Source: a virus
Lineage: Duplodnaviria; Caudoviricetes
Length of the DNA stretch: 64,000 bases
Direction: 5' to 3' (one strand)
Virus record (IMG/VR): IMGVR_UViG_3300026549_000040
Span: 80,876 to 144,875 of that record
Numbering within the stretch: the first letter of the stretch is position 1; each line of letters starts with the position of its first letter. This document shows, piece after piece, positions 3,173-11,798 of this stretch. A model generated the notes under the pieces. It did no database searches. It was not told the DNA's origin and worked only from the letters and a program-made list of their open reading frames with translations. The position numbers and the translations under genes are program-made.

Positions 3173-4366
3173 ATGATTATAAATGGTAAACGAGCTCTTG
3201 CTCACACTGAAAAAATTGAATGGATAAAACCTATAGAAGGTGCAGATAATATAGAGCTAGTAGGAATTCTTGGTTGGACTTGCATTGCAAAGATAGGTGA
3301 GTTCAAAGAAGGAGATACTTGTGTATATATTGAAATAGATTCTAAAGTACCTGAAAAAGAATGGTCTGAATTTCTTAGGGGAAAACATTTTAAAGTAAAG
3401 ACAATGAAACTTGGTAAATTTAAAGTTATTTCTCAAGGATTAGCTTTACCGATTGATTCTTTTGATGTAGAAATTCCTAATAAGATAGGTATTGATGTTA
3501 CAGATATTCTTGGTATTAAATATTCTGTAAAAGAGGATAATAGGAGAAAAGGGAAGGGTATTGATAAATATCAGTCTATGGCTCAACGTAGACCAGATAT
3601 ATTTAAACGTCCTTGGGCTCGCTGGGTGATGCGTAGAATGTGGGGAAAGAGAATTATGTTTTTCTTTTTTGGTAAGAAGAAAGATACCGATAGAAAGTTC
3701 CCTACAAAGTTTGAATATATTCATAAAACAGATCAAGAGCGGGTTGAAAATATGCCTTGGGTTCTTGAAGACAAAACTCCTTTTATTCGTACACAAAAAT
3801 GTGATGGGTCAAGTGCTACTTATATTCTTGAAAGAAAAGGTAGGGGGAAATATGAATTCTATGTGTGTTCAAGAAATGTAAGGATGATAGATGAGAAGTC
3901 AGAAAATTTCTTTGGTGAAGACAATCCATATTGGGAAATGGCGATAAAATATGATATCGAAAATAAACTTAAAGACTATTTAGAATGGTTCAAAACTGTT
4001 GATTATGTATGTTGGCAAGGGGAAATATGTGGACCTAAGATCCAAAAAAATCCTCATAAATTAAAAGAAAATCATTTATATCTGTTTCATATGATTGATA
4101 GCGAAATAGGTATGTTTGATATAAGAAAAGCTAAGTATTTTTGGGATAGATACTTTATGGAGTCTGTTCCTATTATGGAAGATGATTATATATTACCAGA
4201 TAGTCTTGAAGAGTTTAAGTTAAGTGCCGATGGGTATTATGACTCACAAGTATGCGAAGGAATAATGAATTGTAAAAGAGAGGGGTGGGTATACTATAAA
4301 ACAGATGATCCAACATTTAGCTTTAAGAATGTATCAAGAGAGTATTTATTGAAAAAGGGTGAGTAA
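3173..4366 (+). CDS. RNA ligase (DRB0094/Rnl2-like)
   Basis: N-terminal IEGADNIE module; KTDQER; nucleotidyltransferase motifs KCDGSS, QGEICG, REGWV, FKNVS. Confidence 0.85.
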   Translation: MIINGKRALAHTEKIEWIKPIEGADNIELVGILGWTCIAKIGEFKEGDTCVYIEIDSKVPEKEWSEFLRGKHFKVKTMKLGKFKVISQGLALPIDSFDVEIPNKIGIDVTDILGIKYSVKEDNRRKGKGIDKYQSMAQRRPDIFKRPWARWVMRRMWGKRIMFFFFGKKKDTDRKFPTKFEYIHKTDQERVENMPWVLEDKTPFIRTQKCDGSSATYILERKGRGKYEFYVCSRNVRMIDEKSENFFGEDNPYWEMAIKYDIENKLKDYLEWFKTVDYVCWQGEICGPKIQKNPHKLKENHLYLFHMIDSEIGMFDIRKAKYFWDRYFMESVPIMEDDYILPDSLEEFKLSADGYYDSQVCEGIMNCKREGWVYYKTDDPTFSFKNVSREYLLKKGE

Positions 4367-6249: not shown

Positions 6250-6645
6250 ATGAATAGTAAATATTATGTAGAAAAAGAAGGAAAATATTATTACATATAC
6301 GAATATGATAATTCTTCAGGAGAAAGTCATTTTGTAAAAGCCGTATCTTCAAAAGATGACTTAGCAGAGTTTGATCCTGAATTAGTTAAGATACAGGGAA
6401 GTTTAGAAAAAGAAAAACTAAAAGAAGCTATGAAGTCAAATAGAAGAATATGGAATCCAGATAGGCATTTAGATGAAGTTTGTAATCTGTATAGAAAATG
6501 GGCTGGCTGGGATGACGATGAAGTGATAACAGAAGAACATTTTAAAAATCAAGATTGGCGATTAAGAAAGATGAGTGCTTTAAAGAACACTCCTGTTAAT
6601 AAGATAAAAGAAGGATTATTAAATCAAAGGATTCAGAATAAATGA
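6250..6645 (+). CDS. Hypothetical late protein
   Basis: 131 aa, first gene after the motif; internal LKEA. Confidence 0.7.
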   Translation: MNSKYYVEKEGKYYYIYEYDNSSGESHFVKAVSSKDDLAEFDPELVKIQGSLEKEKLKEAMKSNRRIWNPDRHLDEVCNLYRKWAGWDDDEVITEEHFKNQDWRLRKMSALKNTPVNKIKEGLLNQRIQNK

Positions 6646-7745
6646 AAATTAGGAAAGTATTAAACGAAGCTACTATAGAACAAGCTGCTAAAGAATATGG
6701 CAGTGGAGTTAAAAAAGCTGCAAATGATATACAAGCAGGACAAGTAGTAGATGGTGAAGAGCCATTAGGTATGATGGGTAGAGAACTAGATGCTGCTCTT
6801 GCTGCTGCCAGAGAGGCTCAAGATTTTGGTGAAATTGGTGGTGTAAATGTATTATTTGTAGGCCGTGGTGGTACAGGTAAAACATATACTGTTAAAAAAT
6901 GGGCACAGCAAAGAGGTATCAATTTAGTAGAAAAAGATGCTAAAACTATGGACCCTTCAGATTTAGGTGGTGTTGTTGCCAGAAGATATGATGATGAAGG
7001 TAATGCTACTAATACTGTTACAAAACTTTCTAATACAGAATTCGATGAATTAGATAAACCTAATTCTGTATTATTCTTAGATGAGTTAAACAGAGCAAGA
7101 AAAGATGTTGCTGGTGCATTATTAACTTTAATTAATGACCATGTTATTAATGACCAGACTCAACCTTCTGGCAAGAGATTATTAAAAGGATTCTTATTTA
7201 CTATTGCTGCTATTAACCCGAATAAATCAGGTAATGAAGTAAATAGTTTAGATAATCCTATGAGATCAAGATTTAAGACAGTTGATGTTGAATCTAATCC
7301 GCAGGAAAGTATTGAACACTTTGAGTATAAGTTTGGTAAACAGATTGAAAAACTGAAAGCTATGGGTAAGCCAGAAAGAATACCTGTTGTTCAAGGTAGA
7401 TTAGAGCTTGCTAAGAAATTATTATCAGATCCAAGATTTGAATTTGATGGTGATGAAGAAGAAGAAATCGCACAGGATGAAGGACTTCCAGTACTCAATC
7501 CAAGATCTTTCTCAAGATTATTAACTGCTACAAATGGTACTAAAGAATCTTTATTAGCTAACTGGAGTGGTTTCTGTAATCCAGAAAAGTATAATGTTGT
7601 AGAAGATATATTATCAGATTATGTTGATGTAGATGATAAGGCTAATGATGCTTTAAAATTTGATGGGGATAATCCATTTGCAAAAGCTAAAGCTCAACAA
7701 AGAGCACAAAAGAGTATTTACGATCAAATAGCTGATCTCATTTAG
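6642..7745 (+). CDS. MoxR/AAA_5-clade AAA+ ATPase
   Basis: Walker A GRGGTGKT, Walker B VLFLDELNRA, sensor-1 AAINP, Arg finger LDNPMRSRF, sensor-2 NPRS. Confidence 0.9.
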   Translation: MKIRKVLNEATIEQAAKEYGSGVKKAANDIQAGQVVDGEEPLGMMGRELDAALAAAREAQDFGEIGGVNVLFVGRGGTGKTYTVKKWAQQRGINLVEKDAKTMDPSDLGGVVARRYDDEGNATNTVTKLSNTEFDELDKPNSVLFLDELNRARKDVAGALLTLINDHVINDQTQPSGKRLLKGFLFTIAAINPNKSGNEVNSLDNPMRSRFKTVDVESNPQESIEHFEYKFGKQIEKLKAMGKPERIPVVQGRLELAKKLLSDPRFEFDGDEEEEIAQDEGLPVLNPRSFSRLLTATNGTKESLLANWSGFCNPEKYNVVEDILSDYVDVDDKANDALKFDGDNPFAKAKAQQRAQKSIYDQIADLI

Positions 7746-7759
7746 TGGGGTGATTTAAT

Positions 7760-8488
7760 ATGGCTATGACAAAAGAAGAAAAAATCGCTAAGAACTATTT
7801 GATGAGAGTATTGGCTACAGATGGTTATTCTACATACGCTAAGATATTTAGTAAGTTTGATTTTAATTTTACCAGTGATCCTGATGTTGTAGCCTATTTA
7901 GATCCAGCCAGAGGCGTTATTGTAGCTAATAGAGGCTTAGATGAGTTTCAAATAAGTGTAATAATAAGACATGAAATATTACACGATTATTTAAAACATG
8001 AGAAAAGGTTACTGACAAAGTTAGCAGTTGAGCATGGTTTAGATCCAGATGATTTAGATGATATTGCTATAAGAGATTTAAAGAATGAACTCTATGGTAA
8101 TAAAGATTTTAATATTGCTGGTGACTATGAGATTTCTAATAAGGGCTATACTGACAAAGATAAGAAAACAATTAGAAATATTATTCTAAATGGTAGAACA
8201 TTATCTGGATTAGTTACAGAAGATGACCATCCTGAATGGACAGAGCTATCCATAGAAGAAATGTTCGATGAGTTAAGAAAAGAGAAGCAAAAGATGAAGC
8301 CAGACGAGGACGTGATCATAGGTGTGTTACTTCCTCTTAAATCTGCATTAGATAGTGTTATACAAACTGGTGGTTGTGATATCTTCGTAGGTGTTGATGG
8401 TGTTATGTATTCTTCACAGTCTGTAGTAGACTATGCTAAACAGAATGGAATAGGAAATATTATTAGACAGAATGGAGGAACTAAATGA
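7760..8488 (+). CDS. HExxH metallopeptidase-like protein (DUF2201 N-terminal type)
   Basis: RHEILHDYLKH plus FNIAGDYEIS; adjacent to a MoxR-type ATPase. Confidence 0.8.
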   Translation: MAMTKEEKIAKNYLMRVLATDGYSTYAKIFSKFDFNFTSDPDVVAYLDPARGVIVANRGLDEFQISVIIRHEILHDYLKHEKRLLTKLAVEHGLDPDDLDDIAIRDLKNELYGNKDFNIAGDYEISNKGYTDKDKKTIRNIILNGRTLSGLVTEDDHPEWTELSIEEMFDELRKEKQKMKPDEDVIIGVLLPLKSALDSVIQTGGCDIFVGVDGVMYSSQSVVDYAKQNGIGNIIRQNGGTK

Positions 8489-9117
8489 AAAAAAATGTAT
8501 TACTAGAGGCTCCTTCAAAACCTCCTGTCCATATTCATCATGGTTCACTAAAAGATTTAAAAACTTTCTTAGACAAAGATGGTAATCCTTATGACTTAAA
8601 AGTATCTTCTATGAATCCTATGGATCAAGGTTCTGGTGATGGAACTGAAAGTTCTTCAGGACAAAATAATAATCAACAGGGTAACCAAGGTAATTCACAA
8701 AGTAGTAGACAAGGTGGTTCCAGTGGTGGTCAACAAGGTAACCAATCTGGTAATCAAGGTAATCAGAGTGGTACACAGAATGGACAATCTGGTAGTCAAG
8801 GTCAACAAGGTGACCAAGGACAACAAGGTGCTCAAGGTCAACAAGGAAATCAAGGTCGACAAGGTGGTCAGCAAGGTGATCAAGGAGATGGCCAAGGCAA
8901 TCAAGGAGATAGTCAAGATAACCAACAAGGTGGACAACAAAGTAGTCAAGGTGGTAACCAACAAGATAATCAAGGTAACGGTCAACAAAGTAATCAACAG
9001 TCTAACAACGAAGATAAGTTTAAAGTCCCAGAAAAAGGTCAGATGTTTAGGGATATAAATACAGGAAAGACTTATGAATGGGACGGTTCTAAGTTTGTTG
9101 GAACAAGAGGAGTTTAA
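8485..9117 (+). CDS. Q/G/N-rich low-complexity linker protein with short ordered termini
   Basis: About 120 aa of QQG(N/D)QG-type repeats between two short non-repetitive segments; GGAGG SD. Confidence 0.8.
   Translation: MKKNVLLEAPSKPPVHIHHGSLKDLKTFLDKDGNPYDLKVSSMNPMDQGSGDGTESSSGQNNNQQGNQGNSQSSRQGGSSGGQQGNQSGNQGNQSGTQNGQSGSQGQQGDQGQQGAQGQQGNQGRQGGQQGDQGDGQGNQGDSQDNQQGGQQSSQGGNQQDNQGNGQQSNQQSNNEDKFKVPEKGQMFRDINTGKTYEWDGSKFVGTRGV
8640..9005 (+). repeat. Imperfect CAAGGT/CAACAAGG coding repeat
   Basis: Many copies of caaggt/caagga encoding Gln-Gly. Confidence 0.8.
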
Positions 9118-9119
9118 TT

Positions 9120-10073
9120 GTGCCAGATAATAAAGTACCAAATGTAAATGAATTGGGCGAGGTACATATCTATAAAGATGATGCTACTGGAGATATGTAC
9201 ATATTTGATGGAACCCAATTAGTAAAGATTGGAAATTCAACTCCTCAAATAGGTGATAAAGGGGATCGTGAATTTCAAGATAAAGAAGAAGAAGAAAGAA
9301 AAGCTCAGATTGAAAAAGAAAGAGCTGAAGCTGAAGAAAACGGAGAAGAGGTAGACGAAGAAGAAACCGAAGAAGAAAAACAGCAACGTATTGATGATAT
9401 AAAAAACATGATGGGTGATGAAGGTATAGCAGATGATATACAAAATGAAACCCGTGGTCATGTAGATAAAGAGTTAAAGAAAAAGCGTGCTGCTAAAGAA
9501 AAAGAAGTAAAAAAGTATACTTCTTCTATGCAAAGATTTAGAGAATCTTTAAGAAGATTCATTGCTAACCAAGTTAGCGAAATAAGAGATAGAACATTCA
9601 AACGTGAAGATCCTTCTTATGAAGGTTCTGGTATTATAAGACCTGGTCGAATGATAGATGATAATAATAAAATACCTAAAATTAATGTTTACTTTGACCA
9701 GTCCAGCTCTTGGGGAGATGCTGATATTAGAAAAGGTGAAGAAGCAATTGGTGTTTTGAATAATTATGTTAAAAGAGGCGAGATCACAATAGATGTATAT
9801 TATTTTAGTGACTTTGTTTCTGATAACAAAGAACAAGTAGCTGGTGGTGGAACAGCTGCTGGTGCAGAGTTAATCGAGCACATACAGGCAACGAAGCCGG
9901 ATAATGTAATTGTAATGACAGATGCTGATTTTGATCATTGGGGAGAAATTAACGAAGCACCTAATATAAAGGTTCCGGGTGCTGTATGGCTTTTATTCAG
10001 AAAGGGTGAAAGATCAATATTATTGCAACAACACCTTAAAGGTAGAAAGCAAACAAGAGTATTTGATTTTTAA
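9120..10073 (+). CDS. vWA-domain protein (DUF2201 C-terminal type)
   Basis: MIDAS VYFDQSSSW, GGGT, VMTDAD; E/K-rich coiled coil; GTG start after GAGGAG. Confidence 0.85.
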   Translation: MPDNKVPNVNELGEVHIYKDDATGDMYIFDGTQLVKIGNSTPQIGDKGDREFQDKEEEERKAQIEKERAEAEENGEEVDEEETEEEKQQRIDDIKNMMGDEGIADDIQNETRGHVDKELKKKRAAKEKEVKKYTSSMQRFRESLRRFIANQVSEIRDRTFKREDPSYEGSGIIRPGRMIDDNNKIPKINVYFDQSSSWGDADIRKGEEAIGVLNNYVKRGEITIDVYYFSDFVSDNKEQVAGGGTAAGAELIEHIQATKPDNVIVMTDADFDHWGEINEAPNIKVPGAVWLLFRKGERSILLQQHLKGRKQTRVFDF

Positions 10074-10094
10074 TTTAATAAGGATTAAGTTATA

Positions 10095-10652
10095 ATGATA
10101 AAATTAGAAGACAACGAAAAAGAAATTCTTAGAGAACTTGGGAAAAAGTATCTTAAGAATAATGATATACTTGGATTCTGTAGGGCACAAGATTCAGCTG
10201 GTGCCATTAATCCAGGAAGAATAATGCAGTTTTTAATGGAAAATGGTGTGCCAGTGTTTGACTATTTAGAATTTATACCTGATAAAATGTTTCTAGGAGC
10301 AGAAATTGAATCTATTTCTATTCCAAATCATATAACTAGAATAGGAAAATCAGCATTCCGTAATTGTAGTGATTTAACTTCTGTGAATATAGGCGATTCT
10401 GTTATTCAGATAGGGGATCATGCATTTGGAAATTGTGGAAAGCTTACAGAAGTTTTCTTACCAAACTCTGTTAGAGTGCTTGGGTCTGATGTTTTTGAGG
10501 ATTGTTCAAATAATCTTATTATATATGCTGAGAAGAGAGGTCCTGGAAATAGATTAAAATGTAAACAAGGGGAAATACCTTGGTATAAAGAGCATCTATT
10601 TAGACAGCCAGAAACTACTGAAGAAGATGCAGAACAAGAAGAACAACTATAG
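10095..10652 (+). CDS. BspA-type leucine-rich-repeat protein
   Basis: Three IPxxIxxIGxxAFxxCxxL-type repeats. Confidence 0.85.
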   Translation: MIKLEDNEKEILRELGKKYLKNNDILGFCRAQDSAGAINPGRIMQFLMENGVPVFDYLEFIPDKMFLGAEIESISIPNHITRIGKSAFRNCSDLTSVNIGDSVIQIGDHAFGNCGKLTEVFLPNSVRVLGSDVFEDCSNNLIIYAEKRGPGNRLKCKQGEIPWYKEHLFRQPETTEEDAEQEEQL

Positions 10653-10667
10653 ATTGGATTTATTAGA

Positions 10668-11798
10668 ATGTTAAGATTAAGAAATTTAACAGAAAGTTTA
10701 GAAAAAAGATATAATTTAAGTGAATCTCGTGACTTGAATGAATCTGATAAGTTAAATGAGAAACTTAGTGACGATATGCCAGATTGGTTTGCGAAAAGAT
10801 TATTAACTACAAAATATACTGATTCAAGTCGTATTTATAAGAGGGATCTAGGAGGCTCTGCACATTTTGCCGGAGGTAACAATTATACTTATCTTAAGGG
10901 TAAAGGCGCTAAGAAAAATCCTAATTATGGTAAAGTACCAGATTATAAACAATCTGAATATGATGATCAATCACTATTTACAGGGTTACTACATAAGGGC
11001 ATAAGTCTAGATAATGTGAAAATTATAGAAGGCCCAGTACCAATTTCTGATACAGATAAAAGATTACAGCCGCCTAATATCCCAATTTTTCTTCTTAATG
11101 ATGGTGTAGTATATATTCCTGGTGTAAATGATGAAGAAAAACTTGGAAGTAGAAAGACATTAGGAGCGTATAAAATAAGTGCTTTATTGCCTCAATGTAA
11201 AAAATTTGCTTACATAGATGGAAATGACCCAGATAATTTTAAAAGAGAATATAAACGGAATACAAGATACAAAGACCGTAGTGGTTCAATATATAGAGCT
11301 GATAGTCCTGAAAAAGATAGAGATGGAAATCCAATAGGCGGTCTAAAAAATACTTATTGGAATAAATATGATAAATCAGGATATAAGATTATTCCTCCAG
11401 CAGAGAAATATAAAGATAAATTAGATGAAATAAAAGCTAAGAAAATTTATGAAATTATGAAGAAATATGAAGATTATCTTACTGATGCACAGCAAGAAAT
11501 TGCAAACTATATTTCTTCTTTATCTATGAAAGAATATCGTTTAAATAATGATACCATAGAACGATTACAAACTATATTAAATAATGCTATAGGATATTAT
11601 GTAGCTGTCGATAAACATATAAACGAAATAGTTAATGATACGTCTACTACTGATGAAGAAAAAAGAGATAGGTTAGTTGATCTAATAAACTCAAATTATC
11701 CTTATAGATGGGAAGGAGTTAAACAATTAGATAGAGAAGTAGTTAGATTAAAAGATGCTTCAAAAGACGTATTTAACGCAACTATAGATTGGATATAA
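10668..11798 (+). CDS. Putative internal virion protein with N-terminal LxE array
   Basis: LTES, LSES, LNES and LNEK within the first 32 aa. Confidence 0.6.
   Translation: MLRLRNLTESLEKRYNLSESRDLNESDKLNEKLSDDMPDWFAKRLLTTKYTDSSRIYKRDLGGSAHFAGGNNYTYLKGKGAKKNPNYGKVPDYKQSEYDDQSLFTGLLHKGISLDNVKIIEGPVPISDTDKRLQPPNIPIFLLNDGVVYIPGVNDEEKLGSRKTLGAYKISALLPQCKKFAYIDGNDPDNFKREYKRNTRYKDRSGSIYRADSPEKDRDGNPIGGLKNTYWNKYDKSGYKIIPPAEKYKDKLDEIKAKKIYEIMKKYEDYLTDAQQEIANYISSLSMKEYRLNNDTIERLQTILNNAIGYYVAVDKHINEIVNDTSTTDEEKRDRLVDLINSNYPYRWEGVKQLDREVVRLKDASKDVFNATIDWI

Follow-up and report, generated by a model that had tools for sequence, protein, structure and literature searches.

How does a protein that is normally a single chain work when its gene has been cut into three? 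The question is raised by a locus in a 64,000-nucleotide stretch of DNA from a tailed virus of the Caudoviricetes (positions 80,876 to 144,875 of IMG/VR record IMGVR_UViG_3300026549_000040; the whole stretch is called the window below), where a gene encoding a MoxR-type ATPase is followed by three genes, A, B, and C, which together encode a DUF2201-type partner protein with a HExxH peptidase, a linker, and a vWA domain. The new chain ends carry short modules of two kinds, t1 and t2. Because these modules are tied strictly to the broken ends and are missing from the fused forms of the same protein, docking is the best reading of them, and we consider that they probably serve as docking elements that rejoin the split peptidase-linker-vWA partner.

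That A and C are parts of one protein follows from where they match the family phrog_1314: they match different parts of it and are therefore two halves of one protein family. The peptidase motif of A is HEILH at residues 71-75, with H71, E72, H75, and H80 invariant across 42 homologs, and PF13203 was present in fused relatives of A. The metal ion-dependent adhesion site (MIDAS) motif of C is D193-x-S195-x-S197, with all three residues likewise invariant; 346 homologs of C were found, and PF09967 was matched by 5 of 17 family members. The window proteins themselves scored below the Pfam gathering cut-offs (14.4 vs. 23.2 bits for A and 13.8 vs. 26.4 bits for C), whereas fused and some split relatives do match PF13203 or PF09967. 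An AlphaFold2 (AF2) model of an orthologous protein (P0013 residues 196-547, 64% identical, comprising the B tail and the whole of C) had a predicted local distance difference test (pLDDT) score above 90 in its vWA part, and the top Foldseek matches of this model were almost all vWA/I-domains, with probabilities of at least 0.97 and weak E values (2e-3 to 2e-2). Gene B matched no Pfam family, and NCBIfam held no family for A, B, C, or one fused relative. Matches of the A profile to transcription activator-like (TAL) effectors were set aside as likely spurious, no stretch passing alone. Fused members exist in the same phage family (proteins P0064, P0088, P0096, and P0119; loci L009, L011, L018, L033, L041, L042, and L050). 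These comparisons support the view that the DUF2201-type partner of a MoxR-class ATPase, with its peptidase, linker, and vWA parts, has indeed been divided among three genes. A first-pass annotation, made by a model from the letters of the window, had already placed three such genes here; its gene positions agree with ours, and every peptide string that it quoted was correct when checked against the window translations.

A split of this kind might be apparent only, either as an assembly or annotation artifact or because the ribosome, through programmed frameshifting or stop read-through, would still produce one polypeptide. A run of eight adenines (A8) does lie at the overlap of A and B (ATGA), some relatives recode TGA or TAG, and the databases hold an apparent B+C fusion, P0013. 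The three genes of the window occupy three different frames, however, and each piece is translated from a start and a ribosome-binding site of its own, the sites before B and C being of the GGAGG type. The same split recurs in more than 15 independent assemblies, and the window genome translates cleanly in code 11, the standard bacterial code. The relative frames of A, B, and C also vary, B standing at -1 or in frame relative to A (window and L005, respectively) and at other offsets elsewhere, with no conserved shift site. Since relative frames differ between loci, programmed frameshifting was rejected, and we regard a single surviving polypeptide as highly improbable. P0013 (L059:278-1921) was dropped as a natural B+C fusion: it is a caller artifact, in which the stop of B, one in-frame TAG, was translated as Gln, and a ribosome-binding site with a TTG start comes after it. 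The same may apply to other such "fusions" that recoding-aware callers have put into protein collections, and checking at the DNA level is warranted.

Stop-codon recoding in the relatives is an observation in its own right. In-frame TGA was seen in related phages L012, L014, L015, L016, L022, L044, and L046, and in-frame TAG in L017, L021, L023, and L042. The recoded codons fall inside the conserved ATPase, peptidase, and vWA domains, with TGA at a conserved Trp, so these lineages use recoded stop codons, which the window genome does not. The junctions of the recoding relatives are in different frames; recoding therefore does not fuse their genes.

The modules at the chain ends are each about 22 residues long. 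The t1 consensus is hydrophobic-x-G-x-hydrophobic-x-D-x-x-T-F-hydrophobic-D-x-x-G, and that of t2 is hydrophobic-x-hydrophobic-x-D-x-x-T-G-x-x-Y-x-W/F-D/N-G-x-x-hydrophobic (Table 1). At the B/C junction of the window, the B tail and the C head aligned directly by BLASTP (7/20 identical, 13/20 similar, E = 6e-5), and a C-head profile searched against the 169 open reading frames (ORFs) of the genome returned the B tail as its second-best match (E = 6e-4). Comparison of the two family profiles with hhalign gave P = 1.2e-9, bearing out the strong match between these ends noted in the first-pass annotation. The weaker match that it had proposed between the A end and the B start fared differently. 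In the window alone, BLASTP produced no alignment of the A tail with the B head; at the family level, the A-tail and B-head profiles matched with P = 1.9e-8 over 27 columns. The t1 of window A is a derived one, interrupted by 18 inserted residues and extended by 25 more, as is usual among its nearest relatives. Crossed module pairs gave P values of 1e-3 to 0.18. These profile comparisons show that the two junctions carry two distinct module types, t1 on the A tail and B head and t2 on the B tail and C head.

A profile search of the 169-ORF proteome found neither module in any other ORF of the genome. The isolated modules had no significant match in Pfam, and the best match of their profiles among PDB sequences, 8hif VP88, was not significant (E = 0.018), leaving them with no solved relative. 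In the AF2 model of P0013:196-547, each t2 was predicted as a three-stranded meander (pLDDT approximately 67-83); this tethered B-tail + C sequence was used solely for the predicted fold of the two t2 modules. Complex prediction for window A with B residues 1-60, both supplied as alignments, gave a score of 0.02 against a mark of 0.32 and was used neither for nor against binding.

Table 1. Features of the ATPase-A-B-C locus and of related parts of the genome. Positions are those of the window unless marked as genome positions.
Feature	Position	Strand	Evidence
NorQ/MoxR-class AAA+ ATPase, 367 aa (amino acids)	6642..7745	+	Pfam AAA_5 43.9 bits, cut-off 22
Gene A, HExxH metallopeptidase domain, 242 aa, N-terminal third of DUF2201-type protein	7760..8488	+	phrog_1314 positions 65-152
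A tail, derived t1 module	8288..8410	+	A-tail profile matches residues 177-190 and 209-217
Gene B, 210 aa: leader MKKNVLLE, t1 head, Q/G/N/S low-complexity spacer, t2 tail	8485..9117	+	
B head, t1 module (HHGS-F-D..TFLD..GNP)	8533..8610	+	B-head profile 64 bits
B tail, t2 module (P-E-K-G-x-x-F-x-D-x-x-T-G-x-x-Y-x-W-D-G-x-x-F)	9013..9108	+	B-tail profile 63 bits
Gene C, 317 aa, GTG start: t2 head, conserved PQIGDKGD, acidic helical region, vWA	9120..10073	+	phrog_1314 positions 130-370
C head, t2 module (VHIYKDDATGDMYIFDGTQLVKIG)	9159..9233	+	C-head profile 54.5 bits
BspA-type leucine-rich repeat (LRR) protein	10095..10652	+	Pfam LRR_5, E = 5e-22
RNA ligase (PHA02142 OB-fold + RNA_ligase), few genes upstream of ATPase	3173-4366		phrog_968, E = 1e-55
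gp21-family prohead protease domain, PF03420	genome 75086-75487		35.6 bits

Whether the modules belong to the broken ends as such was examined in a census of 239 homolog cluster representatives, with module presence scored at E < 1e-3. The t1 module was present in 101 of 120 A-only proteins, lying within 5 residues of the C terminus in 84 of those 101, and t2 in 95 of 108 C-only proteins, in every case starting inside the first 30 residues. No A carried t2, no C carried t1, and not one of the 11 fused A-C proteins carried any module (split vs. fused, Fisher p = 2e-9, for sequences that are related to each other). Most A-only proteins without canonical t1 are of the window-clade variant, and most C-only proteins without t2 are fragments or proteins with a different, helical head. 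At the level of loci, all 17 three-gene loci had a module on both sides of both junctions, while the 7 fused loci had none. The end motifs are thus conserved in split homologs and missing from fused ones, as the first-pass annotation had anticipated. In five two-gene relatives, the chain is cut once, with the linker and t1 on the A side and t2 heading C (L015, L016, L020, L062, and L063).

The same loci bear on a second alternative, in which whatever duplication or recombination split the gene left the modules behind as neutral relics, with A, B, and C working apart or B being a non-functional linker remnant. A tandem duplication followed by a new stop and start would indeed leave similar sequence on either side of the new boundary, and the A tail of the window clade has drifted, as its insertion and extension attest. 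Against this, the modules are conserved where A and C are only 35-45% identical and the spacer is wholly changed, and B was retained in all 17 three-gene loci, even at 93-112 aa. Both ends of B are conserved in these 17 loci and in 15 database proteins, whereas its spacer is free in length (roughly 35-240 residues) and in composition, being Q/G/N-, S/D/E-, or P-rich, which fits selection on the ends only. We consider a neutral origin improbable.

In window B, the spacer includes nine consecutive G-X-Y triplets (GSQ GQQ GDQ GQQ GAQ GQQ GNQ GRQ GGQ; 8795-8821 region, approximately residues 104-130), because of which the protein gave a weak PHROG "tail fiber" match. A reading of B as a collagen-like protein was dropped, as the triplets occur only in window B and other spacers are S/N/D/E- or P-rich.

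A further form of the protein was seen in jumbo-phage relatives (L024-L051 group; L013; P0103 and P0105), which divide the protein into two pieces and lack both t1 and t2. In these, A bears an additional C-terminal domain of about 200 residues, and a helical "GDAKRGAxDAL" segment stands at the start of C or inside it. This two-part form may be a different answer to the same joining problem.

What the modules bind is the point at which a third explanation has to be weighed. They might not bind each other at all, acting instead as oligomerization or targeting tags (e.g., a foldon-like trimerizer) or as handles by which each piece attaches to some further protein common to all (the ATPase ring, the scaffold core, or the portal, for example), so that the pieces meet indirectly or act separately. 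The t2 profile matched 278 representative proteins at E ≤ 1e-3, and the top matches were large proteins with multiple copies of a related motif, P..P..GD-I-Y-V-D-x-S-T-G-D-x-Y-x-Y-D/N-G-x-x-W, which occurs in 3-16 copies in many proteins of 300-3400 aa (P0255-P0270). Aligned with this fiber-type motif, t2 matched column for column, with D, T, and Y invariant in 26 sequences. In one such protein, P0260, the motif copies alternate with collagen G-X-Y runs, where the identical modules of three chains would adjoin; moreover, all four modules of the locus are distantly alike, and MAFFT aligns them together. The fiber-type motif may be compared with the foldon hairpin of T4 fibritin. By its sequence distribution, the t2-like motif is a widespread, uncurated module with no Pfam family and no solved structure, and t2 could perhaps be a general oligomerization or fiber motif and not a dedicated docking tag. 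In the fiber-type proteins, however, the motif is internal and repeated, whereas here a single copy stands at a chain end beside a gene boundary. Fused forms should need a tag for a third partner just as much, yet they carry none, and a simple homo-oligomer tag leaves unexplained why the modules are found precisely where the chain is broken and why every junction has two of them, one per side. Tags or third-partner handles are accordingly a rather unlikely account, though one with more in its favor than neutral leftovers.

Docking between the pieces therefore remains the preferred account, and which module pairs with which is a separate matter. The first-pass annotation had proposed two orthogonal like-with-like pairs. 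Its two distinct module types stand; its pairing scheme is not settled. Intermediates expected under like-with-like pairing, with a t1|t1 or a t2|t2 junction only, were absent from the sample, in which t2 was never seen at the end of an A or t1 at the start of a C. In the five two-gene relatives, profile classification places a t1 tail opposite a t2 head, and in locus L021, B is reversed (t2-linker-t1), so that both junctions are t1|t2. The single rule that fits every architecture in these sequences is that the A side has t1, the C side has t2, and B has one of each, and this rule would be equally compatible with t1 binding t2, B then being bound in reverse orientation in most loci. Conversely, the multi-copy setting of the fiber-type motif would put identical modules of neighboring chains together, which favors homotypic contacts. 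Neither simple scheme, like-with-like (t1:t1 and t2:t2) or heterotypic (t1:t2), is proven. The t1|t2 junctions of the two-gene relatives and of L021, the possible general nature of t2, and the missing direct alignment of the A tail with the B head in the window all weigh against docking, as does the fact that many of the loci counted above are related and do not represent independent events.

If the modules do dock, a coherent scheme can be drawn. The DUF2201-type partner, with its HExxH peptidase, disordered linker, and vWA domain, is made as three proteins that are translated one by one, and the ends created by the split bear three-stranded beta-meanders of about 22 residues. Binding of these modules across chains would let A, B, and C re-form a peptidase-tether-vWA assembly without a covalent link, and the vWA domain of C would engage the ATPase ring as NorD does NorQ. 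The ATPase itself has a Walker A motif GRGGTGKT and a Walker B motif LFLDE, and G74, G77, G79, K80, D147, and E148 were invariant in the homolog alignment. Foldseek searches with its AF2 model, in which residues 1-39 are disordered, returned NorQ as the top 8 matches (E approximately 1e-9; template modeling score 0.56-0.63 by target) and CbbQ2 at rank 29. The sequence profile instead matched ClpA D2 best (2.7e-10), with MoxR 2r44 at just 6e-3. We accept a MoxR-class assignment on the predicted fold, though fold and sequence-profile evidence disagree in part.

The scheme extends to the phage head through the N-terminal leaders. Residues 1-9 of the ATPase form a basic leader, MKIRKVLNE, ending in L-N-E, and B begins with one as well (Table 1). 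Read by eye, the ATPase leader (M-K-x...-L/I/V-x-E) was present in 34 of 39 loci, and in three further loci the ATPase has a long N-terminal extension ending in L-T-E directly before the conserved start. The B leader was found in all 13 database homologs examined. That the ATPase and B start with an LxE leader and A does not, as the first-pass annotation had it, holds for the window and needs one correction: most C homologs carry an L-x-E leader too, that of window C being ambiguous (VNE, LGE). In T4, an N-terminal targeting sequence of about 10 residues directs internal proteins to the core, and gp21-family proteases cut after Glu, removing propeptides (PMC9958956, PMC5694885). Conserved (L/I)-x-E leaders together with a gp21-type protease in the same genome make capsid loading plausible. 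The basic leaders on the ATPase, on B, and in most relatives on C would then be gp21-type propeptides that load the prohead, with leaderless A riding along.

Several observations count against this part of the scheme. None of 120 A homologs has a leader; in L005, neither B nor C has a clear one; and the leader is absent from the fused proteins. A loose form of the leader pattern, moreover, can be found in 15% of the genome's ORFs. The loose pattern was enriched at 64-97 kb (12/38 genes vs. 14/131, p = 0.004), in a region picked after looking, which makes the test weak. Capsid loading and trimming would be a reasonable proposal, somewhat less likely than not. The ideas that B ferries A and C into the prohead and that the proteins are injected into the host are speculation; B lacks a leader in L001, L057, and L061.

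The genome provides the setting for such a proposal. The source record, of 144,875 bp, was graded complete by CheckV, and the window is its right-hand 64 kb. It is a myovirus genome with a T4-type head module, comprising Portal_T4, a Peptidase_S77 (gp21-type) prohead protease, and a Gp23-type capsid protein, all three encoded immediately upstream of the window. The protease domain makes up residues 40-172 of a 1151-residue ORF (genome 74969-78424; L052:10970-14425), which ends in a coiled-coil region. Adaptor, sheath, and tube genes lie downstream of the ATPase-A-B-C locus. The genes from the ATPase to the LRR protein form one late operon, with T4-type head genes on one side of it and neck and tail genes on the other. 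On the same strand from the ATPase to the LRR gene, no terminator-like site was seen. The order ATPase, A, B, C was kept in more than 30 loci. The capsid protein has only about 30% identity to that of the nearest cultured phages, and the locus was not found among the INPHARED phages, by DNA search for the locus or by tblastn with A and C as queries, which covered 50,697 phage records.

In fused loci as in those with two or three genes, the LRR gene comes after the vWA gene. In the window, the LRR_5 protein and the next protein, of 376 aa and with several L-x-E sites at its start, are separate genes (10095-11798), and in two fused-type loci, they form a single ORF (L009:5848-8061 and L033:5802-7436) whose joints carry L-x-E sites exactly at the junction (FLTE|A, KLTE|D; KLKE|A). 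The operon therefore has a second fission/fusion pair, which resembles polyprotein logic.

Taken to its furthest, the scheme would make t1 and t2 a portable two-letter docking code, with which T4-headed phages cut an AAA+ partner into capsid-targeted, protease-trimmed pieces that are reassembled in the head and delivered to the host as an ATP-driven remodeling and proteolysis machine. We think this full version unlikely. Its parts would matter separately. If the modules dock, the locus is a clean natural case of gene fission offset by small transferable connectors, and the occurrence of fused, two-piece, and three-piece versions in one protein family makes the idea directly testable; protein engineers would gain two beta-sheet tags that are very short and possibly orthogonal. 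Should the leaders mark capsid cargo, a MoxR-class ATPase with its peptidase/vWA partner would be a phage machine of a new kind, packaged and possibly injected, and would give a first functional handle on the uncharacterized DUF2201 family. To our knowledge, an AAA+ ATPase with a vWA/peptidase partner has not been reported as T4-type head cargo, and a literature search for DUF2201 together with MoxR found no paper.

Among known systems, the closest are the DUF2201-type MoxR partners themselves (PF13203 DUF2201_N + PF09967; PHROG 1314), which have the same order of HExxH peptidase, low-complexity linker, and vWA domain with MIDAS and the same neighbor, an AAA_5-type ATPase. Unlike the norm for that family, the chain is here cut into three genes, or two in some relatives, with a beta-meander module gained at each cut end. 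NorQ-NorD and CbbQ-CbbO likewise combine a MoxR-class ATPase with a partner ending in a vWA/MIDAS domain, and NorQ binds the vWA domain of NorD (PMC9976466, PMC13036017). In contrast to both, the present locus has no metalloenzyme client gene nearby, its partner carries a peptidase, and it lies in a phage late operon with protease-type leaders. The T4 capsid-targeting sequences and gp21 propeptides, as of the internal proteins and Alt, resemble the leaders described here in having about 10 basic N-terminal residues that end in hydrophobic-x-Glu, and the same genome encodes a protease of the gp21 family along with portal and capsid proteins of the T4 type; unlike T4 head cargo, the would-be cargo is an AAA+ ATPase with a vWA/peptidase partner. 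For the modules, the nearest parallel is offered by the docking domains of polyketide synthases (PKS) and nonribosomal peptide synthetases (NRPS), short C-end and N-end regions that set subunit order, are dispensable in fusions, and can be used for artificial splitting (PMC9113145, PMC7496407). The t1 and t2 modules likewise lie at the upstream C-end and the downstream N-end and are absent when the chains are fused, and a corresponding function is inferred for them. They differ from the PKS/NRPS domains in belonging to unrelated sequences and families, and in that B would be little more than two putative docking modules and a spacer.

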